Positions 9,027 to 22,497 are shown, numbered from the stretch's first letter. The stretch is DNA of 64,000 nucleotides from an uncultured Candidatus Woesearchaeota archaeon (GCA_903915225.1 CAIWSB010000080.1:21459-85458), one strand, 5' to 3'. Translations and numbers: made by a program. Notes: generated from the letters alone by a model not told the origin.

Positions 9027-9081
9027 GTGCTCATTCTTGAACCATTATTTTAAACAATATATTTGATTTAAGGTGATTAGC

Positions 9082-12000
9082 ATGAGAAAAATATTGGTTA
9101 TGTCTTTAGTGATTTTGCTGCTGTTGCCATCCTTGGTTTTGGCTCTAACCCTTACTTCCCCTCAAGAAGGTACATTGATACCCTCCGATTACGGTTGTAA
9201 TGAACAGCCGAGCTGCAGTGAAGCGCTTTCTCAAAGTGGTGGCATTGCAACCCAATATGATTTCGACTCAGACGGCCGTGTCGACCTCAAGGAGGTTCTG
9301 CAGGCCATTGCTGATAAAAGCTTAGGAAAAATTTCCGGATCGCAAGTGTGTGGCATGATAGGGTTGTGGCAGAGTGATTGCATCACTATTCTATGCAAAG
9401 ACTCAGATAACAGCCCCGACTTTTATACGAATCTTATTACTTATCCAATAACATCCGATAGCGAGCCATCACTTTTCCAGAAGGGCTATGCTAAGGGTAT
9501 ATACACACAAGCAGACCAAAACCTAATAATTGGAGAGGGGAACAAGTTATCATCTATTAGCCAAAGCCCTTACCCCTATTCCATTTACTATGACCATTGT
9601 GCAAACGATCAACAGCTGAATGAGGCCTTCTGCACAACTGAAGGCAAACTAGCTTCCCAGGGAGTTTCATGTCCCAACGGATGCGCAAATGGCGCGTGCT
9701 TAAAAGTGTCAACTCCGAAATGCACAAGTGATTCCGAATGCCCCTCATCGCAGAATACATATTGCTCGGGTGGTTCGGTTTGTTATGAATCCCCAATCGG
9801 GAAATGCATAAACCCCGGAACCGATTCAGCTTACTGCGGCCAAGTCTCTGGGCAAGCGGCCTGTAAAATATGCCCCAATGGCTGCTCTAGTGGGGAATGC
9901 AACCCGGCGCCAACATGCAAAGATACAGATGGACTGAATTATTTGACCAAAACCTCTGTGACTTCAAGCCAGGGTAATGTTTGGTGGGATCAGTGCATTC
10001 AAATCACTGGCGGAACTCCAGAGAGTGCATCCTATTGCGCAGGACAAGACTGCTACCTTTACGAGATGCTTTGCAGCCCCGTTAAAAGTCCCGAAATACT
10101 TGAATTAACTAAAACATTTGATGGAGTGTATAGTGCAAAAATTAGATGTGCAGATGGTTGCAACGATGGCACCTGCAAAAAACCTACTGCAACATGCACG
10201 GATTCTGACGGCGGCATTGACTATTATACCAAAGGAAAAATTGAAGCTTCAGGTTGGGGAATTACCTATGATTCCTGCTTTGGAGAAAATGGCGCTAGTA
10301 TGTTGGATGAGTATTACTGCAATAAAGATGGTTCAGTAGGCAAAGTTGATTTTAGCTGCCCCAATGGCTGCAAGGATGGAGCCTGCATAAAACCAGCTGC
10401 GACATGCAAGGATTCGGATCTTGGGGTGGATCCATATACTAAAGGGATATGTAAAGACTCAAGGGGAGTCATCGTTGAAGACGGTTGCCTTAAATCAGAT
10501 GGTTCTGGTCCTTATCCTAAGGGAGAGTATGTTCTTGAATCCTACTGCATGACCCCTGACATGAGGGAATACTGCAAACAATTCAATGGTGCAGAATACT
10601 GCGATAATCTTCCAGATGTGTGCTATTCCTCTCCATTTATCCCCCAGGATAATCTTGCATGGTATTATTTCCCAAGGAATGAGGCATATTTCTGTGAAAA
10701 TGGCTGCTCAAATGGGGCATGCATAAAGGGAACAAACCCAAAATGCACAAGCGATTCTGAATGCACATCCTCCCAAAAGTCATATTGCTCCGGCAATTTG
10801 GTTTGTGTTCAACCCTCAAGCGGAAAGTGCATAAATCCTGGAACTAATTCAGCTTATTGCGGTACATTATCTGGGCAAGAAGCTTGCCAGCTGTGCCCCA
10901 ATGGTTGCTCAAATGGTGCTTGTATAACCTCAACTTCCAGCTGCTCTGACACAGATGGTGGCATAAATCAGTTTGTCAAAGGAACTGTAAAAACCTTCAG
11001 AGGTCCAGACGAAACGGGGCTGATTGGTATAGCCCAAGGGGTTGGTGCTGTTAAAAAAAGTGTAGAATCTAAGGAAGGTTACACTGCAACTTTTACAGAT
11101 GCCTGCTTCAAGGCGGATGATTACTTCACCCTTAATGTGGGAGAAAAAAGAGATATCAAGATATGGCAGGAAAAATCTAGTGTTGAAATTGTGAACGTAA
11201 ATGTCCCAGAAAATAAAGTTACCCTAAAAATTGGGGGAAATATTTTGACCCTGAATGAGAACGAAGTGAGTGGGATGAACCAAATTATGGTTGGCAAAAT
11301 ATTCACTGCCGAAATCCCTTACCCTACGGCGCAAGTGGAGATTTTTATAGGTCCGCATCAGGGTGCAGGGGATTACCTCATGGAATTCTATTGTTCTGGG
11401 GACAACAACGCCGCTGTAGAATATTTCAAATGCGAGAACGGGTGCTCCGATGGAGCCTGTAACCAGGTAAACACAAAGTGCATTTCTGAAGGACAGACAG
11501 GTTCAGGGTTTTCCCCATACTCCTCTAACGAGAAATGCTGTGCGGGCCTAACTAGTGTTGCCTGTGCAACATCAGACGGCGATATGTGCGGCGTAGCCAC
11601 AGACTGCTTTGTCTGCACCAACTGCGGTGACGGTATATGCGGCCTAGGTGAGAATCAATGCAACTGCGCTCAAGACTGTAATAATTGTGTTGGCGAAGGG
11701 GGCAGTATACCGGTAATTCAAAACGGCCCCAAATGCTGCGCGGGTTTGACACCAATTTCACCCACAGTGTCTAGCGGAACAGGAGAGTGCTTGGTTATGA
11801 TTGGAGCACAGGTTTGCACCAAGTGTGGTGATGGAATCTGTGGCGCAGGTGAGAACCAATGCAACTGCGCTGAGGATTGTGCGTATTCCAAATGCTCAGA
11901 CACCGATGGCGGCCAAGATGTTTTCACAGCAGGCAAGGTGATAATTACAAAGAGCACTGGCTCGATTTACACAGTTCCAGACACATGTGTGTCTGAAGCC

Positions 12001-13500
12001 AACATGCATAATATGGGAATTATGGAGGTAAGCTCATTTGTAAAGAAGGTCAACCCTATCACTGCAGTATCATCTCCTACTGTGACAGTAGCCTCTACTC
12101 CAGTTCAATCAACTTCAGCCGGGGCTTCTGGAGGGCAAGTGCCTTCAGTGGCATCTGTTCAAAACACAGCTATACAAGTGGCTGAAGAGATTGCTGAGCA
12201 GCCCCCATCACAGTATACTACTCCACAACAACCCCCATTAATTACACCCCCCTATGGACATAAGACATATGTTTTGGAGCAATACTGTAATGAAAATGGT
12301 GGCTATAATACCTTGGCTTACGAATGCCCATACGGATGTGAGAATGGTGCTTGTATTACATCACCAGCCACCTGCCTTGCTGAAGGAGAAAATGGCAAAT
12401 CCGGTTTTGAACTCACCACCTGCTGCGAAGGCTTAACCAGCGTCCCAAATTCAAAATTTGAAACAGTTGGTGATGCATCCGGTTACACATGCCTCCAGCC
12501 CCAGGACGGGAGCTTTGTCTGCACCAACTGCGGAGATGGCATATGCGGCTTGGGAGAAAACCAATGTAACTGTGCTCAAGACTGTAATAATTGTGTTGGC
12601 GAAGGAGGAAGCATCCCGGTTATTCCAAACGGCCCAAAATGCTGTGCCGGTTTGACACCAATTTCACCCAGTGTGTCTAGTGGAACAGGAGAGTGTGCGA
12701 TTATGGTGGGGGCGCAGGTTTGCACCCAATGCGGTGACGGTATCTGCGGCGCAGGCGAAAACACCTGCAACTGCGCAGAAGACTGCAAGAAAGTGACCAA
12801 GTGCGAAGTCAATGCAGGGTACTGCCAAGCTGAGTACAAATGCACTGACTTTAAATGCGGCCCTGCACCCACATGCAAAGAGGGATACTATGAGTCTGGT
12901 GAGCTTGGCTGTGTGGAAGGATTATGTTGCCTGCCAGAACCACCTGCAACCAAATGCGAAGCCAACGGTGGTTATTGCAATGTTATGCCAGAATGCAAAG
13001 AGGGATATGAGTGCATACAAATGATGCCAGAATGCAAGGGTGGGTATAATCCCTCTAAAGACTCCTTGGGTTGCCCGGGGGAATGCTGCCTACCTGAAGT
13101 ACCAACCAACACCTGCGAGACCAATGGGGGAAAGTGTACTATTCTTGGGGATCTTGTTGAAGATACGTGTGAAATGCACAACCTGAAAACACTCCCCTAT
13201 TCTTGCCAGCAGATTGCAACGAATACACAATGTTGTGCTGAAGCGATTGTGCCACCCACTACAGTTTGTTCTGGCTGCGTCTACAAAGAGGCATGCCTCC
13301 CAATTGGAACCAGAGTGAGTGTGGATAGTGCGGGTCAATTCTGCGATATAAACAAGCAGATTACTGCCCAACTCCCTGAAGATAATTCCTGCATGAACAA
13401 CTATGAATGCAAATCCAACCTCTGCGTGAGTGACAAGTGTATAAGTGGTGGATTCTTTACAAGGATAATGGAATGGTTTAAGAGCCTCTTTGGGGGATAA
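9082..13500 (+). CDS. Giant (1472 aa) secreted modular cysteine-rich surface protein. The track ORF begins at GTG 9073; the likely true start is ATG 9082.
   Basis: Sec signal peptide MRKILVMSLVILLLLPSLVLA. Eight copies of C-[PE]-N-G-C-x-[DN]-G-[AT]-C and about six copies of C-x-D-[ST]-D-G-[GL] (CKDTDGL, CTDSDGG, CKDSDLG, CSDTDGG twice, plus a weaker CKDSDNS). Two ~90-aa near-identical CTNCGDGICGLGENQCNCAQDC...CGDGICGAGENQCNCAEDC repeats, a Pro/Ser/Thr linker, and EGF/granulin-like Cys knots at the C-terminus. Confidence 0.8.
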   Translation: MRKILVMSLVILLLLPSLVLALTLTSPQEGTLIPSDYGCNEQPSCSEALSQSGGIATQYDFDSDGRVDLKEVLQAIADKSLGKISGSQVCGMIGLWQSDCITILCKDSDNSPDFYTNLITYPITSDSEPSLFQKGYAKGIYTQADQNLIIGEGNKLSSISQSPYPYSIYYDHCANDQQLNEAFCTTEGKLASQGVSCPNGCANGACLKVSTPKCTSDSECPSSQNTYCSGGSVCYESPIGKCINPGTDSAYCGQVSGQAACKICPNGCSSGECNPAPTCKDTDGLNYLTKTSVTSSQGNVWWDQCIQITGGTPESASYCAGQDCYLYEMLCSPVKSPEILELTKTFDGVYSAKIRCADGCNDGTCKKPTATCTDSDGGIDYYTKGKIEASGWGITYDSCFGENGASMLDEYYCNKDGSVGKVDFSCPNGCKDGACIKPAATCKDSDLGVDPYTKGICKDSRGVIVEDGCLKSDGSGPYPKGEYVLESYCMTPDMREYCKQFNGAEYCDNLPDVCYSSPFIPQDNLAWYYFPRNEAYFCENGCSNGACIKGTNPKCTSDSECTSSQKSYCSGNLVCVQPSSGKCINPGTNSAYCGTLSGQEACQLCPNGCSNGACITSTSSCSDTDGGINQFVKGTVKTFRGPDETGLIGIAQGVGAVKKSVESKEGYTATFTDACFKADDYFTLNVGEKRDIKIWQEKSSVEIVNVNVPENKVTLKIGGNILTLNENEVSGMNQIMVGKIFTAEIPYPTAQVEIFIGPHQGAGDYLMEFYCSGDNNAAVEYFKCENGCSDGACNQVNTKCISEGQTGSGFSPYSSNEKCCAGLTSVACATSDGDMCGVATDCFVCTNCGDGICGLGENQCNCAQDCNNCVGEGGSIPVIQNGPKCCAGLTPISPTVSSGTGECLVMIGAQVCTKCGDGICGAGENQCNCAEDCAYSKCSDTDGGQDVFTAGKVIITKSTGSIYTVPDTCVSEANMHNMGIMEVSSFVKKVNPITAVSSPTVTVASTPVQSTSAGASGGQVPSVASVQNTAIQVAEEIAEQPPSQYTTPQQPPLITPPYGHKTYVLEQYCNENGGYNTLAYECPYGCENGACITSPATCLAEGENGKSGFELTTCCEGLTSVPNSKFETVGDASGYTCLQPQDGSFVCTNCGDGICGLGENQCNCAQDCNNCVGEGGSIPVIPNGPKCCAGLTPISPSVSSGTGECAIMVGAQVCTQCGDGICGAGENTCNCAEDCKKVTKCEVNAGYCQAEYKCTDFKCGPAPTCKEGYYESGELGCVEGLCCLPEPPATKCEANGGYCNVMPECKEGYECIQMMPECKGGYNPSKDSLGCPGECCLPEVPTNTCETNGGKCTILGDLVEDTCEMHNLKTLPYSCQQIATNTQCCAEAIVPPTTVCSGCVYKEACLPIGTRVSVDSAGQFCDINKQITAQLPEDNSCMNNYECKSNLCVSDKCISGGFFTRIMEWFKSLFGG
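9715..9905 (+). repeat. Intragenic repeat B copy 1 (PKCTSDSEC...CPNGCSSGEC module); copy 2 at 10735-10925, ~75-80% nucleotide identity
   Basis: Direct comparison of ccgaaatgcacaagtgattccgaatgc... with ccaaaatgcacaagcgattctgaatgc... Confidence 0.6.
10735..10925 (+). repeat. Intragenic repeat B copy 2
   Basis: See copy 1. Confidence 0.6.
11611..11880 (+). repeat. Intragenic repeat A copy 1 (~270 bp; encodes CTNCGDGICGLGENQCNCAQDCNNCVGEGGSIPVIQNGPKCCAGLTPISP...CGDGICGAGENQCNCAEDC)
   Basis: Near-identical (~85-90%) to 12517-12785. At the protein level the copies differ at only a few positions. Confidence 0.7.
12517..12785 (+). repeat. Intragenic repeat A copy 2
   Basis: See copy 1. Confidence 0.7.
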
Positions 13501-13530
13501 ATTTTTATTTAACCTTCATTTTTTAATTTT

Positions 13531-14193
13531 GTGAAGGGTTTAATAGCTGTTTTTGTATTTTTTATAATTCTAATTTCCTTGGCAGAAGGTAAACTTAACC
13601 AAGGGCCCATGAATTCAAGGCAGATTGAAATACCTTGTACTGAATCAGATGATGGTAAGGACTTTTACCTGCGCGGCAGTGTTTGGGGAGTTGATAATTG
13701 GGGAATAAATGGAATTATAAGTGACATATGCCTTGGCAAGGATGAGTTGGTGCCAATGTTTCCCGGGCAAAGAAGAGTGATAGAGACAAGCAGGGGCACT
13801 GCCATGGAGATTAGGCTTCTGGGATTAGATGAGGGGAAAGGGAAGGTATTAGTGAGTCTTGATGGGAAGGAATTCACAGCTGAGCAATGGGATAAGCTGG
13901 CCTTTGCAGGCGGCTATGTTGGAATAAACCAAATTGCTGAAAATTGGGTTTTTTTGACATTTAACCTAACTGCTGCTGGCAACAAATTATTGGAGTATTA
14001 TTGTGAAGACCAAAAAATTGGTTTTGAAATTTATGAGTGCCCAATGGGATGCTCCGATGGGGCCTGCAGGGTGGATGAAAAACAAGAAAGAACAACAAAA
14101 GAGGTTGTTCTATTTCCTCTTGAACATTTTCTCCAGATCAACCCTAGTGAATTTTATGACAGTTGGGCGGCCATGGGCGCAGGCATAGGCTAG
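13531..14193 (+). CDS. Small secreted protein (220 aa) carrying one copy of the same Cys module as the giant protein; GTG start
   Basis: Signal peptide VKGLIAVFVFFIILISLAEG, then CTESDDGKDFYLRG ... YYCEDQKIGFEIYECPMGCSDGACR, which parallels the module boundaries in the giant protein. Needs a GTG start. The 3' end overlaps the mutL 3' end by 84 nt (convergent). Confidence 0.5.
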   Translation: MKGLIAVFVFFIILISLAEGKLNQGPMNSRQIEIPCTESDDGKDFYLRGSVWGVDNWGINGIISDICLGKDELVPMFPGQRRVIETSRGTAMEIRLLGLDEGKGKVLVSLDGKEFTAEQWDKLAFAGGYVGINQIAENWVFLTFNLTAAGNKLLEYYCEDQKIGFEIYECPMGCSDGACRVDEKQERTTKEVVLFPLEHFLQINPSEFYDSWAAMGAGIG

Positions 14194-15792
14194 ATTGCAT
14201 TCGAACAGCTTTTCAAGTAAGGAAGACATCTCTGCCGGGGAAAGCTCCTCATTGGCTTTCACCGAAGCCTTGCAGGCCATTGTATGGATAATCTCTTCCT
14301 TTACCATCCCACTCTTAGTCTTCTTGAGATTCGCGGCGAGTTCATCGAACAGGTCTTTAAGATAATCTTTTGTGACCCCCCCGCCAAGAATAACCGGAAC
14401 CTGCCTCACAATGAATTGATGCTCCCCAAAGCTTTCCACATCAAAACCTAGCTCGCGCAGATGAGCAAGCCCCTCTTTGATAATAGGCACATTGTGTTTT
14501 GGCGGACTCACAAGAATTGGCTGAAGCAGCTGCTGTGGTTTTTGGTTTGAGTCCAGGGTTTTGTTTAACCTTTCAAGATTTATTCGCTCTTCAGCTGCAT
14601 GCTGGTCAACAATTATGAGGCCGTCAGGTACCTCGGCGATGATGAAGCTCTTTGCCACTTGCCCCAGCACCTTAAAGCCCGGCGATGAGTGTTCCCGTGC
14701 GAGCATGGTTTGTTTGCCCATATCAATCTTACCTTCAGGAGCATTCTTCGTAGCATTACTGAGAATACGGCCGAGTACACTCTGCTGCGATTCCGGCTGC
14801 TTCTCAATAAGCACATTATGCTCGAGAGCCTCCTTAACAGCCAGATGAACCTCTGTGAAAACAAGCTCTTCGGAATCAAATTTCACTTCTTGCTTCGTGG
14901 GGTGTACGTTTACATCAATCCTGCCTGGTTCGATTGTGATATTGAGCACAGCCACAGGCTTCTTATCCAAAAACAGCAGGGTCTTATAGGCAGATTCAAG
15001 CGCATCGGTCAGCAGCTTACTCTTAATGTATCTGCGATTCACAAAAAAACTCTCAAAAGCTCGGGTGCTGCGGGCAATGCTCGGAATTCCAATCAATCCA
15101 TCAACTCTGATACTGCCGGAGTGCAACACGGGTACCATATTCTTAGCAACATCCATTCCGTATATGTGGGCCACCTTGCTCCTCAAGTCAACAGTTGCCG
15201 GAGCACTTAGTATCTCCGATTCATTGTTCTTTACAATGAACCCAATTTCTGGGTAAGCCAGGGCATAGTTGGTTACAACATCAACAATGAGCCTAAGCTC
15301 GCCCGTTTCACTTGCCAAGAATTTCCTGCGTGCAGGTGTGTTGTAGAAAAGGTTACGCACCGCAATTGTTGTCCCCTTTGGTGCAGCTACTTCCTCCACA
15401 CGCTTGCCATCACCATCTACCACAACACGCGTTCCAGTACCAGCACCATCGTTTGTTACAATGCTAAGCCTTGAAACAGCAGCAATACTGGCCAAAGCCT
15501 CACCACGAAAGCCCAGATGCCTGATGTTGAATAAGTCGGCCAGTGTTGATATTTTGCTGGTCGTATGCCTCTCCACCGAAAGAAGGGCATCAGCGCGTGA
15601 CATCCCGGAGCCGTTGTCGCTAATAATTATCACATCCTTTCCGCCAGCCTTGAGCTCGATGCGAACCATTGTGGCTCTGGCATCTATTGCATTCTCCACA
15701 CATTCCTTTACCACAGAAACCGGGCGTTCAACTACCTCTCCAGCAGCTATCTTTTCAACAATTTCCCTTTGGAGCCTCTTTATTGTTCCCAT
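14110..15792 (-). CDS. mutL: DNA mismatch repair protein MutL
   Basis: GHKL ATPase N-terminus EVVERPVSVVKECVENAIDA...IISDNGSGM and the C-terminal dimerisation domain with CAHGRPTVIKF. Confidence 0.9.
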   Translation of the reverse strand: MGTIKRLQREIVEKIAAGEVVERPVSVVKECVENAIDARATMVRIELKAGGKDVIIISDNGSGMSRADALLSVERHTTSKISTLADLFNIRHLGFRGEALASIAAVSRLSIVTNDGAGTGTRVVVDGDGKRVEEVAAPKGTTIAVRNLFYNTPARRKFLASETGELRLIVDVVTNYALAYPEIGFIVKNNESEILSAPATVDLRSKVAHIYGMDVAKNMVPVLHSGSIRVDGLIGIPSIARSTRAFESFFVNRRYIKSKLLTDALESAYKTLLFLDKKPVAVLNITIEPGRIDVNVHPTKQEVKFDSEELVFTEVHLAVKEALEHNVLIEKQPESQQSVLGRILSNATKNAPEGKIDMGKQTMLAREHSSPGFKVLGQVAKSFIIAEVPDGLIIVDQHAAEERINLERLNKTLDSNQKPQQLLQPILVSPPKHNVPIIKEGLAHLRELGFDVESFGEHQFIVRQVPVILGGGVTKDYLKDLFDELAANLKKTKSGMVKEEIIHTMACKASVKANEELSPAEMSSLLEKLFECNLAYACAHGRPTVIKFTRVDLEKMFKRK

Positions 15793-18260
15793 TTTTTCAA
15801 ACTAAATTGTTCTGCATGTTTCTTCCCCTGCAGCTTGTCCAGCATCTCATCTTCATCCATGAGTTGTTTCTGGATACCCATAGCCCTATCAACAACCTCT
15901 TGCGGCATTCCTGCGAGCCTGGCCACATGGATTCCGTAGCTCTTATCAGTTCCGCCCTCTTCAATTTTCCTTAGGAAGATGATGTCACCACCCTTCTCCT
16001 TTACACTGATGTTCCAGTTTTTGATATTTGCAAACTCCTCACCCATCTTGTTGAGCACATGATAATGGGTTGCAAAGATTGTCTTAGCCTTAATTTTGTT
16101 GTAAATGTACTCTGCAACTGCCCAAGCTATTGCAACGCCATCAAATGTTGACGTTCCGCGGCCAACCTCATCAAGCATGATAAGCGATTTATCAGTTGCA
16201 TTGTTGAGTATGTTGGCTGTCTCATCCATTTCAACCATAAATGTGCTCTGGCCATGCATGAGGTCATCATAGGCTCCAACTCGGGTGAATATCCTGTCCA
16301 CTATGCCAATCTCAGCCTCCCCGGCAGGCACAAAGCTGCCAATCTGGGCCATGAGTACAATCAAGCAGACCTGGCGCATATAGGTGCTCTTGCCAGCCAT
16401 ATTTGGGCCAGTAAGGATTACCATCTCATTCTTAGTGAGCAAAGTATCGTTCGGAATAAAACCAGGACAAATAAGTTCAACAACCGGATGTCTGCCAGAT
16501 TTAATGCGGATATCTCCGTTGTTGTTTACCAAAGGTTTAACGTATCTATGCTTTTCAGCTGCATGGGCAAGGGAGCAAAGCACATCAAGGACAGCAAGAC
16601 GCCGGGCTATTGCCTGGAGTGGCCTTGCATTACGTTCCATCTCTAAAACAACTTGCCTGAAGAGCTCATACTCAAGTATATTTATCCGCTCTTCGGCCCC
16701 CAATATCTTTGATTCAAGCACCTTTAGCTCTTCGGTAACATAGCGCACCCCCCCAACCAGGGTTTGCTTCTGAATGAAATTGGGTGGCACTCTGCCGATT
16801 TGGGAATTTGAAACCTGGAGGTAATAACCAATAACCTGGTTGAAGCCAACCCTCAGGGTTTTTATGCCTGTTCGGTTTATTTCATCATACTCAATGCGCT
16901 TGAGCACCTCACTGCTGGATTCCTTTATCTCTCTAAGCTCATCCAGCTCTAGGTTAAAGCCTGCACGGATTATCCCCCCCTCAGTTGCCTTTAGTGGTGG
17001 GTTCTCCTGAATGGCCTTTTTTATCCCCCCAGTTAATTCATTAAGGGTCTGCATTGTGGCTAATTTTGTGAGTGTAGAATTGGTTGAATCCTTTAGAAGC
17101 GAGATAAGCTTGGGCAGCTGGTCCAGGGAAGTGCTCACGGCAATCAAATCCTTTGGGTTGATGCTGTTGTATGAGAGCTTGCCAACCATTCGCTCTAGGT
17201 CGCAAACTCCCTTCAAAAGGCTGCGTATCTCTTCCCTCAAGATTGGGTCACGGGCCAGTAGGGCAATTGCATCTTGTCTTCCCTTTATTTTATCCACATC
17301 AATGAGGGGGCGCTGGAGCCATTGCCTAAGCCGCCGTGCACCCATTGGCGTGATAGTATAATCAATCTTGCCCAACAGGGTGTCTTTTCCACTCCGGTCC
17401 ATTATATTCTCAAAAACCTCTAGGTTGCGGAGCGTTGTGCTGTCAACTATCATGAACCAGTTGATGTTTATTGTCCTCATCCTATTAATGTGCCCTAAGG
17501 CCAGCTTCTGGGTCTCTTTAAGGTAGGCAAGAAGCCCCCCTGCAGCAGATATTTGCAATGGTTTGCCCTCGAGTCCGAAACCGCGGAGCGAGTTGGTGCG
17601 GAAATGCTCCAGCAGGGTGCGCGCCGCATCATCATTGTTGAATGAGCTGTCAGGGAATTTTGTCACAAATATCTTCTCCTTTTCGAGCAGCACTAGAAAG
17701 TCCCCGTTCACAGCAAAGCTTTCTGGGATAAGGCATTCTGCAGGTCTGAGTTTTCTTAGCTCAGAAGCCACCCGCTCAAAACCCTGCGCCTCGAAGCAGA
17801 AAAAATCCCCCGTTGTTATGTCCGCTGCAGCTACGCCAAAGCTATCCCCACGCGGAAAGACAGAAGCTATAAAATTATTCTGGCCCTGCTGAAGCATACC
17901 CTCTTCAGTTACTGTGCCTGGAGTGATAATCCTAACAACATCCCTTGAGACAATCCGGCCCTTCACTGTTCTAGGGTCCTCCATCTGCTCAGCAATTGCC
18001 AAACGCAGGCCGCTGCTTATCAGCCTCTGGATATAGGTATCAGCCGCCCTATAAGGAATGCCTGCCAGGGGTGCCTTCTTTTGGCCCTTCCCTCTTGAAG
18101 TGAGTGTAATCCCAAGCACCTTGGAGGCAGTGATGGCATCCTCATAGAACATCTCATAGAAATCCCCCATGCGGAACATCAGGAGGCAGTCTGGGTGCTT
18201 CTGCTTAAAGTGCTTGTACTGCTTCATTGCCGGAGTCAAATCCGGCTCCAAACCCCCCAT
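15780..18260 (-). CDS. mutS: DNA mismatch repair protein MutS (bacterial MutS1 type). The track start 18299 is TTG; the first ATG is at 18260.
   Basis: N-terminal mismatch-binding TPAMKQY...LLMFRMGDFYEMF and Walker A LTGPNMAGKSTYMRQV. Overlaps the mutL start by 13 nt. Confidence 0.9.
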   Translation of the reverse strand: MGGLEPDLTPAMKQYKHFKQKHPDCLLMFRMGDFYEMFYEDAITASKVLGITLTSRGKGQKKAPLAGIPYRAADTYIQRLISSGLRLAIAEQMEDPRTVKGRIVSRDVVRIITPGTVTEEGMLQQGQNNFIASVFPRGDSFGVAAADITTGDFFCFEAQGFERVASELRKLRPAECLIPESFAVNGDFLVLLEKEKIFVTKFPDSSFNNDDAARTLLEHFRTNSLRGFGLEGKPLQISAAGGLLAYLKETQKLALGHINRMRTININWFMIVDSTTLRNLEVFENIMDRSGKDTLLGKIDYTITPMGARRLRQWLQRPLIDVDKIKGRQDAIALLARDPILREEIRSLLKGVCDLERMVGKLSYNSINPKDLIAVSTSLDQLPKLISLLKDSTNSTLTKLATMQTLNELTGGIKKAIQENPPLKATEGGIIRAGFNLELDELREIKESSSEVLKRIEYDEINRTGIKTLRVGFNQVIGYYLQVSNSQIGRVPPNFIQKQTLVGGVRYVTEELKVLESKILGAEERINILEYELFRQVVLEMERNARPLQAIARRLAVLDVLCSLAHAAEKHRYVKPLVNNNGDIRIKSGRHPVVELICPGFIPNDTLLTKNEMVILTGPNMAGKSTYMRQVCLIVLMAQIGSFVPAGEAEIGIVDRIFTRVGAYDDLMHGQSTFMVEMDETANILNNATDKSLIMLDEVGRGTSTFDGVAIAWAVAEYIYNKIKAKTIFATHYHVLNKMGEEFANIKNWNISVKEKGGDIIFLRKIEEGGTDKSYGIHVARLAGMPQEVVDRAMGIQKQLMDEDEMLDKLQGKKHAEQFSLKKWEQ

Positions 18261-18361
18261 GCAAGGGCATAATCCCTTGTGGTTTTTAAAATTTGCCAAG
18301 GTTGGGCCTCGAGAGAGGGGAAGTGCTCCTTAGAAAGATATTTAAATTTCACCCCAGATAA

Positions 18362-18814: not shown

Positions 18815-20596
18815 ATGTGGAAAAGAGGTGCATCGGTTGGTATATTCTTGGTAATTGGAGTAATAATACTCATAACAGCGGGGCTTGTTGTCTGGGTAAT
18901 GAATGGCACATCTCCAAAGCCAACAAATGATGATGTGTCCGGCTATGATGCTAGTGAAGTCCAGAGCTTTGTTAATAGCTGCCTATTTGATTCAACAATT
19001 GCAGGGCTGCGCCTATTGGGACAGCAGGGTGGAGTTATATACCTGAGCCAGGGAGGAGTAACCCCAGATTCTTTCATGCAATCTGAGGCGATACTTTACG
19101 ATGGAAGCTATATACTTAGGGGTATATTGGCCGGGGATATGGACTCTGGGCGCTCCTGTGTCCCAACCCACAAACCACCTATCTATAACCCAGAGAGATG
19201 CCCAAATGTGGCATTCCCCTTCTATAATACAGAATCTCCAGAGGTTTCAATGCAGCAGCTGAGGATATCACCTCCCCCAGCTGATGCCTATGTTCGGCTT
19301 TTAAACAGGGTAAACCTTCGAGACCTCTACCCTCGCACAGAGGAATTTACGAAAATGGGAGCCACATTTGACAATTTGGTTGACAACTCCAGGGACCAGA
19401 GCGTCTATGCGACACTCAAATCCTTCATTGAGCGCAATATCACAAAATGCCTTGACTTCTCAAGCCTTCAAAATGTGGAGGTTACTGCCACGGGGCAGCC
19501 ACAGGTAATCCCTATAATATCTGCTGATTTTGTTACAGTTAGTATGAAATATCCCTTAACAGTAAAACACCAATCAAAAACAATAAGCCTGGAGAAGTTC
19601 TCAGCACCCACACGGGTCAGGTTTAAACCCTTGTTCATTTACGTCAAGTACCTTCTTGAAAATGAAGCCCTGGATTTCAGTTTTGACATCGGTTTGCCCC
19701 AGGACAGCCCAGTGGGTGTAAGCCATATTGTAAATAAGGATGTTGTGGGAAAGGCAGACTTGCTTCAAGTGACTGACAATAACTCTTTCCTGCCAGATAA
19801 AGGGGGAAGTGGTTTTGTGCCTTTCATGTTCTCCACTTTTATTGATAACTCTCAACCGGCCATATCTTATATCCATTATAATAATTTAGATATAGTGCCG
19901 GGGTTGAGGAATAGGCTCACTCATTGTTCGCTCTTAGCAGAACCGCGCAACCCCTGGGAGGAATCAACCACTGATTTGGAAGCTGAAATTGGTACTACCA
20001 TGAATCGGGCAGCACTTACTTGCCTCTGGCAAGCCTATGAGAATTCACTAGGGCCTGGATACAGGAGGGTATATGAGCCAGACGGTGATCTTTTGCCTCC
20101 CCCTGACTTCAAGACTGCACATTGTGAATGGAATAAACCCTGCCAATACAAAGGTGAGAATCTCTTCCTTGATAGGCCAGTAAATTTAACAATTAGGTTT
20201 AATGATAGTCAATATGCGGATACTTTAACAATTCCTCTAAAATTATTTGACCACCCGGTTGAAGATCTGAGGATAGGGAGGGTCCACTATGAAGAGGAGG
20301 TTTTGGCAGGTCTTGACCCTCTTATTGTAGACTTAGAACAGGCACTACAGTTACTACCGCTGGTATACCAAGTAAATGCCACCGATGAGGATATCCGGTG
20401 GGGGACTGAAGTCGATGAGATTGAGTATAGTGTGGATGTACCAACTGTTAAGTCGGAGAAGGAAGAACTATCGGAAATTAAACGCCGCTGGGTTGTCGGG
20501 TTCATGAGAAGCTATTCTGGGCAAGTCGCCAACTTCTCTGTCAGGGACAATTATGGCAAATCCATCAGCAAAACTATTGTTTTAGGGGAAGATTAG
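18815..20596 (+). CDS. Large (593 aa) extracellular protein with a class III (type IV prepilin-like) signal peptide
   Basis: N-terminus MWKRG|[23 protein letters not shown] fits the archaeal prepilin peptidase motif (basic residues, G, small residue, hydrophobic helix). The remainder is soluble with no recognisable domain. Confidence 0.55.
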
Positions 20597-20625
20597 GAAA
20601 AATTTTATATACTAGTATACAACTT

Positions 20626-22497
20626 ATGGGAACTAAAATGGCAAAAAAAGGTTATCTTTTACTAGCTCTGTTGATAGGGATATTCTTGGTGCAATACGCT
20701 GCAGCCCAGAGTGGATGCTGCCTCAACCCAATGACTGAGGGATGTAAATACTCTGCATTGGAAACATGCTGCCCGCCAGACGCCCCAGATAAGTATGTGG
20801 CAGCAGGGGGAGTGGGACCTGCGAATCAAGGGAATTGCACTAGTAATTGGTTCTATCAGAGCGAGCAGGAGGATGCATGCGCCACGATGTCGGCCGATAC
20901 ATTCCCCAATGCAGGTTATTGCATGCAGGGATGTTGCTGCACAAGCCCGCCAGAGTCACAGGAAGGGAATCCTTTCCCAGTAATATTCCTGCAGGAGAAT
21001 AAACTCCTGTGCCTGGGCTTAGACCAGTTTTGGTTTGATTTACAGACAACACCTGTTTGTGATAACACAACCTGCGGGCCAAAATTGTACCCCCCCTTGC
21101 TTAGAAATGCAACTTGTGATATAACTATACCGGGTTATTGTGACCCTTACACCGCGTCAGACCCAGAAGTTATTTGTAAAAATGTTACAAATGTCAATGC
21201 TCAAAACACTCAACGAGGAGTGTGTTGTTACAGCCCCGAGTGTGCAGCAGAAATTGTTGGAGAGACTGTAACAGAAGATCTCTGCGTGGAAACCTTCACT
21301 TCCCCATTCAATGACCCACAAATGGTTTGTGTGAATGGCAATTGGGTCCAATCTGGGCTACCAGTTGGTGCTGGTGAGGTTTGCGCAAGGCAGACAGGCC
21401 AGACAGCAACAAACGAACCAATACTTTTACAGGTTGGTACGTGCACTGATGGCCTGCTTTGTAAACCTGCATTGATTGATGAGATCTTTCACGTATGCTG
21501 TGCAAACAACGAGTGTAGTTACTTTAATACAACCAGCCTAAACGGAACCTGCTATGCTGACCTTTCCAAAATTGAATTGGGAATTGAGACAAGAGCTAAT
21601 TACACCTGTGACAACGGGACATGGACAACTGCTAGTGATGAAATCAAAAAGCGGCATGGAGAGATTTGCGAGAAGTCCCTTGATTGTAATACTGATCTCT
21701 CATGTTTACCCTACAATGTGGAGTCCACTGAAGAAAGCGCAGGTATAAAGCACTGCTGCCTTAAGGATGGCACCGAGTGTGGTTCTCCAGATGGATGCGC
21801 GGGTAAAGATGATACAAAAAAGGTGGGCAACGATACATATGTCTGCATCGGACCGCTTTGGGTAAAGAAGACGGTGGTTGAAACCCCTTGGGAACCACAA
21901 GATAACGGTGGCAGCTCAGGTGGCGGTGGCTGCAGCTCAGCAGGAACAGGTAGTGGTGCAGGTGGCGTTGGCGGGGATAATGTGACCCTAGACACTGATA
22001 ATGATACAATCCTAGATGATAGCGACAACTGCATAAATATATCAAACACAGACCAGAAAGACACAGATAGTGATGGTAAGGGCGATGTGTGTGATGATGA
22101 TATTGACGGAGATGGGGTATTAAACGAGCAGGATAACTGCCCTGAAATCCCAAATGCGGACCAAGCTGACCTCGATAATGATAAAATTGGAGACGTTTGC
22201 GATTCTGATAAAGATGGAGACACGGTTGCAAACGATGTAGACAACTGCCCCCTAGTGATTAACACAGACCAGAAAGATGATGATAATGACGGAATGGGGG
22301 ATGCGTGCGATACTAACGGCAACCAGGAAACCAATTCTTTACTCTTATGGGGCGCCGTGCTAGGTGTGGTAGGAGCAGGCTTAGCTATCGCACTTGGTTG
22401 GATAGCGGCACCCACTTTAGCCATTGGATCTCTCGTTGTTGGAATTGGAACAGTGGTGGGTGTAGTTGTGGGCTGGCTAGTGAGTCTATTCGTCTAA
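20626..22497 (+). CDS. Secreted Cys-rich surface protein with thrombospondin type-3 Ca-binding repeats and a C-terminal TM anchor
   Basis: Signal peptide [25 protein letters not shown]. Cys-rich N-terminal region. Five or six TSP3-like repeats, D-x-D-x-D-G-x-x-D-x-C-D / DNCPxxxNxDQxDxDxDGxGDxCD ([82 protein letters not shown]). C-terminal hydrophobic stretch [25 protein letters not shown]...[10 protein letters not shown]. Confidence 0.7.

Follow-up and report, generated by a model that had tools for sequence, protein, structure and literature searches.

Described systems that come close to the six-cysteine (six-Cys) module considered here include the thrombospondin type-3, dockerin or EF-hand (DxDxDG), Kazal and EGF-like modules, and the likeness is by analogy only: all are small and extracellular, have multiple disulfides and recur in tandem within large surface proteins, and the six-Cys module has a conserved D-x-D...D/N...D...E set suggesting metal binding. 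The module was followed up in a stretch of 64,000 nucleotides (nt) from an uncultured Candidatus Woesearchaeota archaeon (GCA_903915225.1 CAIWSB010000080.1:21459-85458), referred to throughout as the window, and in particular in an open reading frame (ORF) at 13531-14193 on the plus strand, which lies between the gene of a giant Cys-rich surface protein upstream and a convergent mutL gene downstream. For the ORF itself, sequence comparison with these systems gave no match. The D-S-D-G-G motif of the module family is off the canonical spacing of DxDxDG loops and the corresponding motif of the ORF reads E-S-D-D-G-K-D, and with no profile match and a different spacing the ORF is not assigned to the EF-hand or DxDxDG class. 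Kazal domains adjoin the six-Cys module in some family proteins, and are not a substitute for it.

The reading preferred here, to which a probability of about 0.72 is attached, is that the ORF encodes a genuine secreted protein of two nested domains, consisting of one six-Cys module, a lineage-specific insertion within it and a passive C-terminal tail. Translation from the GTG at 13531 would yield a pre-protein with a Sec-type signal peptide, and the mature protein, comprising about amino acids (aa) 21-220, would contain one small all-beta six-Cys extracellular module. A beta-rich domain of ~75 aa would be nested in one surface loop of this module, between the second cysteine (C2) and the strand that carries the LxEYYC motif, rather than forming part of a 140-aa module, and the last 27 codons would be a passive extension of the frame into mutL, whose antisense register is poor in stops. 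Such a product, soluble or associated with the surface, could have a binding role: the disulfide-stapled, probably Ca2+-stabilised module would be the scaffold and the insertion would give specificity, and the giant protein, whose gene has the same orientation and lies 30 nt upstream, is a possible partner.

Membership of the ORF in the six-Cys module family is shown by sequence comparison, at levels far above chance. The encoded protein has exactly six cysteines (36, 67, 158, 170, 174 and 179), with a span of 144 aa from C36 to C179, and these align to the family's C1...C2...C3...C4-x3-C5-x4-C6 arrangement; both motifs quoted in an earlier note on this DNA are present. A hidden Markov model (HMM) built from 72 modules, the ORF excluded, matches aa 35-74 (model positions 3-39, E 3.5e-8) and aa 150-180 (model positions 35-65, E 1e-12), and these two matches are complementary and co-linear, with no other match in the ORF. 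The N-terminal half of the module (13627-13752, plus strand, aa 33-74) has the form C1-x-E-S-D-D-G-x-D-F-Y-x-R-G ... D-x-C2 and the C-terminal half (13978-14070, plus strand, aa 150-180) the form L-L-E-Y-Y-C3 ... C4-P-M-G-C5-S-D-G-A-C6. In an AlphaFold2 (AF2) model of the ORF made with a 95-row alignment, the predicted local distance difference test score (pLDDT) is 84-95 for the first half and 91-93 for the second, and 84-95 over aa 31-70 and 151-180 together. When aa 71-150 are removed, the remainder aligns end to end with the third module of the giant protein (giant aa 375-438; positions within giant modules 3 and 5 are given in a 1475-aa numbering) at 44% identity over 68 columns (E 8e-12).

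The residues that the ORF carries at the near-invariant positions of the family are E38, D40, G42, D44, G49, D65, E155 and G177, of which E38, at HMM position 6, is a minority state (8%). The compact span from C1 to C6 that is usual for the family (about 58-75 aa) is exceeded by the 144 aa of the ORF, and because both module halves are intact the long span, on this evidence, is to be counted as a variant feature of a family member and not as grounds for exclusion. The HMM and the alignments bear out the earlier description of the ORF as a free-standing protein with exactly one copy of the module that is repeated in the giant protein, and a six-frame motif scan of the window found no further module outside 9073-14193. 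The six cysteines would form three extracellular disulfides, and the near-invariant acidic positions E38/D40/D44/D65/E155 suggest a metal site, probably for Ca2+.

The family to which the ORF belongs is large. An exhaustive HMMER profile search of 1.84 billion representative proteins returned 1,444 proteins at E <= 1e-3, nearly all of them matching only profile positions ~30-70 and ~147-185, which are the two module halves, and the family is estimated from these matches at no fewer than 1,444 clusters at 50% identity; a word-indexed search with the profile of the seven window modules gave 6 matches only. Family statistics were taken from 155 retrieved proteins with 590 motif-delimited modules. 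The C1-C6 span is 50-79 aa in 513 of these 590 modules, typically 58-75 aa, and reaches 120-175 aa in about 20. The 72-module HMM described above, with 66 match states, recovers 659 full modules, among which all six cysteines are present in 656 and the near-invariant positions other than cysteine are D/E6, D8, G10, N/D12, G17, D30, E40 and G62. The family signature can be written C-x-D-S-D-G-G-x-D/N-Y-Y-x-K-G ... D-x-C ... L-x-E-Y-Y-C ... C-P-x-G-C-x-D/N-G-A-C, and the core common to the ORF and the six giant modules as C1-x-D-S/T-D-G-G-x-D-x-Y-x-K-G ... D-x-C2 ... L-x-E-Y-Y-C3 ... C4-P-N-G-C5-x-D-G-A-C6.

These figures do not sustain the earlier suggestion that the spacing of about 140 aa between the two motifs of the ORF marks the module boundaries. 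The canonical module, as delimited by the family alignment, is about 64 aa long, and the span of the ORF is inflated by the insertion of ~75 aa; the boundaries are better drawn around a unit of 66 positions, which opens about 3 residues ahead of C1 and closes 1-2 residues past C6. Many free-standing single-module relatives were found in the search with the 72-module profile; they are 78-126 aa long, and several of those that were read end 1-2 residues after C6. Four of them (P0191, P0206, P0163 and P0173) resemble the ORF in that an N-terminal segment of signal, anchor or lipobox-like type is joined by a short linker to exactly one six-Cys module; P0191 is the NCBI hypothetical protein HYV79_00715 [Candidatus Woesearchaeota archaeon] of 103 aa, and P0206 is KY317_01880 (109 aa), annotated as a hypothetical protein of Candidatus Woesearchaeota. 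The free-standing relatives have an uninterrupted module of ~60-66 aa with the same D/G/E signature, whereas the ORF has the ~75-aa insertion and a 41-aa tail into mutL. Judged by sequence, the module limits are clearer in these free-standing relatives than in the window ORF, and the implied proposal that the ORF be used as the best delimiter and structural target gives way to them. Either the compact module of the giant protein (giant aa 371-441) or a free-standing homolog of ~100 aa would be the better structural target; for giant module 3, AF2 predicts a small all-beta domain at pLDDT 93 with a predicted template modelling score of 0.78. Knowledge of the true boundaries helps both annotation and the choice of constructs for structural work.

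Searches of curated resources returned no counterpart of the module. Pfam-A and NCBIfam hold no model that matches it in the ORF, the giant protein or eight other family members, where S_layer_C, CARDB, Kazal and DUF1554 are the only domains matched, and the ORF has no Pfam match at E <= 1. Foldseek against the PDB found no relative, the best E being 0.28 for the ORF model and 2.4 for the module model (TM <= 0.34), and a PDB sequence search gave chance matches only. Literature keyword searches found no description of the module, which is a weak negative since keywords cannot find a motif.

The insertion (13753-13977, plus strand, aa 75-149) is nested in the loop that joins C2 to the LxEYYC strand and is predicted to be all-beta; its existence and position are established by the alignments to the family. 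AF2 places seven strands and one short helix in aa 71-150, at pLDDT 57-74. The module HMM has no match in aa 75-149, and a phmmer search with the insertion returned only the ORF and its ortholog, between which the segment is under purifying selection, with a ratio of non-synonymous to synonymous substitution rates (dN/dS) of 0.16. Smith-Waterman comparisons with shuffled controls against six insertion-bearing modules gave a best z of 2.8, to P0130, which 25 of 1000 shuffles reached and which is not convincing. Beta-rich insertions, 60-90 aa long and sharing the recurring look 'x-V-x-L-x-V-N/I-G-x ... I-x-V-x-x-I', are also present in modules from other organisms: in P0091, P0151 and P0130 they precede C2, and in P0023 the insertion falls between C3 and C4. 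Their pairwise similarity to the insertion of the ORF is not significant. One loop of the module accepts large insertions, and it is mainly as a natural domain-insertion variant, a modest curiosity, that the ORF is of interest.

Both the ORF listing and the raw sequence confirm a 220-aa frame on the plus strand at 13531-14193, closed by TAG at 14191-14193, that needs a GTG start, the GTG at 13531 being its first possible initiator. An ortholog (P0002), likewise of 220 aa and 72% identical, is the only counterpart of this protein that word-indexed and exhaustive HMMER searches of two very large protein collections recovered, and a scan of species-representative genomes with the ORF gave no match. 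The contigs of the ortholog have the same synteny: a giant gene ends 30 nt ahead of the ORF, and the ORF converges on mutL with an overlap of 84 nt. In the DNA alignment the ATG of the ortholog lies exactly opposite the GTG of the window. Comparative support for initiation at the GTG is therefore good, since the ortholog has ATG at the same position and the divergence upstream of Met27 is of the signal-peptide type, codons 1-20 being conserved in the manner of a signal peptide; the start proposed earlier is upheld. Over aa 36-179 the proportion of synonymous differences (pS) is 0.60 and that of non-synonymous differences (pN) 0.14, with dN/dS 0.13 and a synonymous divergence (dS) of about 1.2; only the synonymous sites come close to saturation. 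By part, dN/dS is 0.13 in the N-terminal module half, 0.055 in the C-terminal half, 0.16 in the insertion and 0.94 in the signal peptide. Because dN/dS is this low while synonymous sites are near saturation, the comparison identifies the ORF as a genuine protein-coding gene under purifying selection.

Upstream of the GTG there is no Shine-Dalgarno-like site. The 30-nt spacer contains a TATA-box-like element, TTTTTATTTAA (13502-13512, plus strand), centred about 24 nt upstream of the GTG and nearly identical in the ortholog, and other genes of the window that come first in their operons have TTTATA-type elements resembling it at a distance of 20-38 nt upstream. The element is possibly an archaeal promoter belonging to the ORF itself, with a short leader or none, and the T-runs of the same spacer could act as a terminator for the giant gene transcript. 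An Rfam scan of 13300-14400 found no RNA family.

The GTG start and predicted Sec signal peptide occupy 13531-13590 (plus strand, aa 1-20), with cleavage predicted after AEG. The N-terminus has the n/h/c layout of Sec signals, MKG / LIAVFVFFIILISL / AEG|K, with a positively charged n-region, an h-region within the usual 7-15 residues and of mean Kyte-Doolittle hydropathy 3.37, and small residues at -3 (A) and -1 (G); AF2 predicts a helix at aa 2-17. The ortholog shares the MKG and EGKLN segments, and the hydrophobic core has diverged while remaining hydrophobic, as signal peptides do; the counterpart of the cleavage site is TEG|K, followed in both proteins by a conserved polar KLNxGPM. The claim that the ORF has a signal peptide of its own agrees with this layout, hydropathy and ortholog pattern, and Sec export with cleavage after G20 is the probable course. 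An extracellular location of the family as a whole is well supported, as far as sequence goes, because its members have N-terminal signal, anchor or lipobox-like segments and co-occur with archaeal S_layer_C, CARDB and Kazal domains. The window is archaeal in content, with ribosomal proteins L32e, L19e and L18/L5e and an EMC3/TMCO1-like insertase, and SecY is encoded.

The C-terminal tail of the ORF (14071-14193, plus strand, aa 181-220 and the TAG) runs into mutL (14110-15792, minus strand), which is convergent with the ORF and matches Pfam MutL_C (8.7e-37), DNA_mis_repair (3.4e-34) and HATPase_c_3. There are 41 codons beyond C179, and the last 84 nt of the ORF (14110-14193), including its last 27 codons, are antisense to the 3' end of mutL, with codon position 2 facing position 2. 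This overlap, as described earlier, is real and is conserved in the ortholog. All five substitutions within it are synonymous in mutL and three of the five are non-synonymous in the ORF (I203V, S206G and A213S), while the C-terminal 38 aa of MutL are identical in the ortholog. The striking conservation of the tail is thus, in this comparison, imposed by mutL. A stop in the antisense register needs TTA, CTA or TCA on the mutL side; as these three account for 2% of mutL codons, the probability that 27 codons stay open is 0.59; open runs in this register reach 173 codons inside mutL. Once the ORF has no stop of its own before mutL, an overlap is to be expected in so stop-poor a register, and the tail is most likely a non-functional read-through extension. 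The conserved convergent overlap of 84 nt is in this way most likely a passive consequence of antisense codon statistics. Further inside mutL, a 173-aa ORF at 14689-15210 (plus strand), antisense to mutL and in the codon register of the tail, is a shadow ORF that arises from the rarity of TTA, CTA and TCA.

Alternatives to the preferred reading differ widely in plausibility, and those that concern the origin of the ORF turn on the selection estimates and on its relation to the giant protein. That the ORF is non-functional, a decaying fragment or a chance frame between the giant gene and mutL, is scarcely credible: the non-ATG start, the missing Shine-Dalgarno-like site, the lack of a Pfam or NCBIfam match and the existence of only two known sequences would fit such a view, but the dN/dS of 0.13 at a dS of about 1.2 over the module, a full-length ortholog that starts with ATG, the intactness of every invariant family residue and the confidently folded AF2 core all speak against it. 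A pseudogene or chance ORF was rejected, being effectively refuted by dN/dS. The giant gene (9082-13500, plus strand) encodes 1472 aa from ATG 9082, with six copies of the module and other Cys-rich repeats; the C1-C6 spans of its modules are 102, 87, 64 (module 3), 106, 173 and 154 aa, the extra residues lying in different loops. Giant modules 3 and 5 and the ORF have the same six-Cys module, and module 5 resembles the ORF further in a long insertion that follows C2. It is unlikely, all the same, that the ORF is a recent duplicate of module 5, copied with its insertion and later provided with a signal peptide. The best full-span BLASTP alignment of the ORF to the giant protein does fall on module 5 (aa 624-796, 25% identity, E 2e-9), both insertions follow C2 and are similar in length (85 versus 89 aa), and the sole stretch that hhalign aligns is co-linear (29-51 versus 30-52). 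The insertions by themselves, however, are not significantly similar, with a Smith-Waterman score of 30 where shuffles average 24.4 (sd 4.3; z = 1.3; 234 of 2000 shuffles reach the score), an hhalign probability of 0.5% (E 0.12) and a phmmer E of 0.24, and for this reason the E of 2e-9 is to be traced to the core halves. When cores are ranked against the ORF, 83 modules of other organisms stand above the best giant module (module 3, in 84th place) and module 5 is 470th; since so many foreign modules are closer than any in the giant protein, the ORF belongs by its sequence to the broad family and did not arise by recent copying of an adjacent module. Calling it a paralog of the giant modules holds in that broad family sense and fails in the sense of a recent local copy. 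The alignment of the ORF to each giant module that was proposed as a check finds similarity confined to the two Cys-motif halves, which together are the whole canonical module, and so sustains their relatedness.

The remaining alternatives concern the two ends of the protein. A somewhat improbable one is that the hydrophobic segment at the N-terminus stays uncleaved as a signal anchor, giving a type II membrane-tethered protein that is not released. A hydrophobic run of 14-16 residues and the AF2 helix at 2-17 are compatible with an anchor, and several family members have longer N-terminal transmembrane-like segments or lipobox-like L-x-G-C sites, pointing to tethering as a common family trait; yet the h-region is short for a membrane span, and both orthologs have small residues at -3 and -1 (AEG|K, TEG|K) followed by the conserved polar KLNxGPM. 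Far more doubtful is the idea that aa 194-220 form a functional dual-coding C-terminal element, comparable, for instance, to the WFKxLFG tail of the giant protein as an amphipathic anchor. In its favour, the ortholog retains both overlap and stop codon, AF2 puts two short helices in the tail, and mutL shows less synonymous divergence within the overlap (pS 0.27) than over the 100 codons before it (0.40). This deficit, 5 synonymous changes against about 7.5 expected, is not significant; the pLDDT of the tail is 48-61, there is no match to the family C-terminal motif, and several free-standing modules end right after C6. A dual-coding tail was rejected as the preferred reading on the synonymous-in-mutL pattern, the chance openness of the register (an open stretch of this length having P = 0.59) and the tailless free-standing relatives. 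The reading of a secreted, nested two-domain protein with a passive tail has points against it as well. All selection estimates for the ORF derive from a single ortholog pair; the signal peptide was judged by eye and by rule; the insertion has moderate AF2 confidence and no relatives beyond the ortholog; the three changes in the tail are conservative (I/V, S/G and A/S), so that some constraint on it is possible; and the small family proteins P0152 and P0155 are not adjacent to giant proteins, which makes the coupling of the ORF to the giant gene a matter of local synteny in two related genomes.

Under the preferred reading, the ORF protein would be a secreted, disulfide-bonded and possibly Ca2+-stabilised surface or adhesion protein. 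The module itself is a very common component of surface proteins in uncultivated archaea, including Woesearchaeota, and ranks among the commonest building blocks of their large Cys-rich surface proteins. A wider proposal, put forward only tentatively, is that it represents an abundant extracellular family, present in DPANN-type archaea, absent from all the curated libraries tested and with a fold that has no solved relative, whose stable disulfide and Ca2+ scaffold displays variable binding domains, the ORF being a natural example of the insertion of a whole domain. If true, this would offer a handle on how episymbiotic archaea build adhesive surfaces.

Several further observations concern the small family proteins and the giant protein. 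In P0152 and P0155 (loci L018-L021) an N-terminal Kazal-type protease-inhibitor domain is fused to two to four six-Cys modules, and locus L018 carries an archaeal or eukaryotic-type marker, the replication factor C small subunit. The ORF listing begins the giant gene with a GTG at 9073, but this GTG is part of a Shine-Dalgarno-like AGGTGA that precedes ATG 9082 by 6 nt, and the database copy of the giant protein (P0003) has 1472 aa; the start is therefore ATG 9082, as taken earlier. Near the N-terminus of the giant protein, aa 61-83 (window 9253-9321), DFDSDGRVDLKEVLQAI, give a sub-threshold EF-hand match (E 0.19) and may form a dockerin-like or EF-hand-like Ca2+ loop at the start of the mature protein. 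A near-identical internal duplication occupies window positions ~11470-11880 and ~12370-12780 (aa ~800-935 and ~1100-1235) and contains four C-G-D-G-I-C-G-x-G-E-N-x-C-N-C-A-x-D-C repeats (aa 851, 918, 1153 and 1220) with no Pfam match. The 3' end of the gene (13390-13497, aa ~1440-1475) encodes C-x-N-N-Y-E-C-K-S-N-L-C-V-S-D-K-C-I-S followed by an amphipathic segment, FFTRIMEWFKSLFGG. Such a C-terminal Cys-rich unit with a '...WFKxLFG(G)' end occurs in 14 of the 155 family proteins, and this terminus may be a conserved anchoring or sorting signal; the giant protein is a 1472-aa mosaic of the repeated module with other Cys-rich repeats and the WFKxLFG tail, the last two of which the ORF lacks.

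On the other side of the ORF, mutS and mutL form a pair of bacterial type at 14110-18299 (minus strand) within this archaeal genome; the start of mutL overlaps the end of mutS by 13 nt. The nearest MutL relatives among species-representative genomes are 34-44% identical, with 63% over one short fragment, and are mostly bacterial, together with one metagenome-assembled genome of Thermoplasmata. Downstream of mutS, at 18815-22497 (plus strand), lie two more large genes, one of 593 aa without a Pfam match and one of 623 aa with thrombospondin type-3 (Ca2+-binding) repeats (E 1.2e-26), and these two may encode further surface proteins of the neighbourhood.
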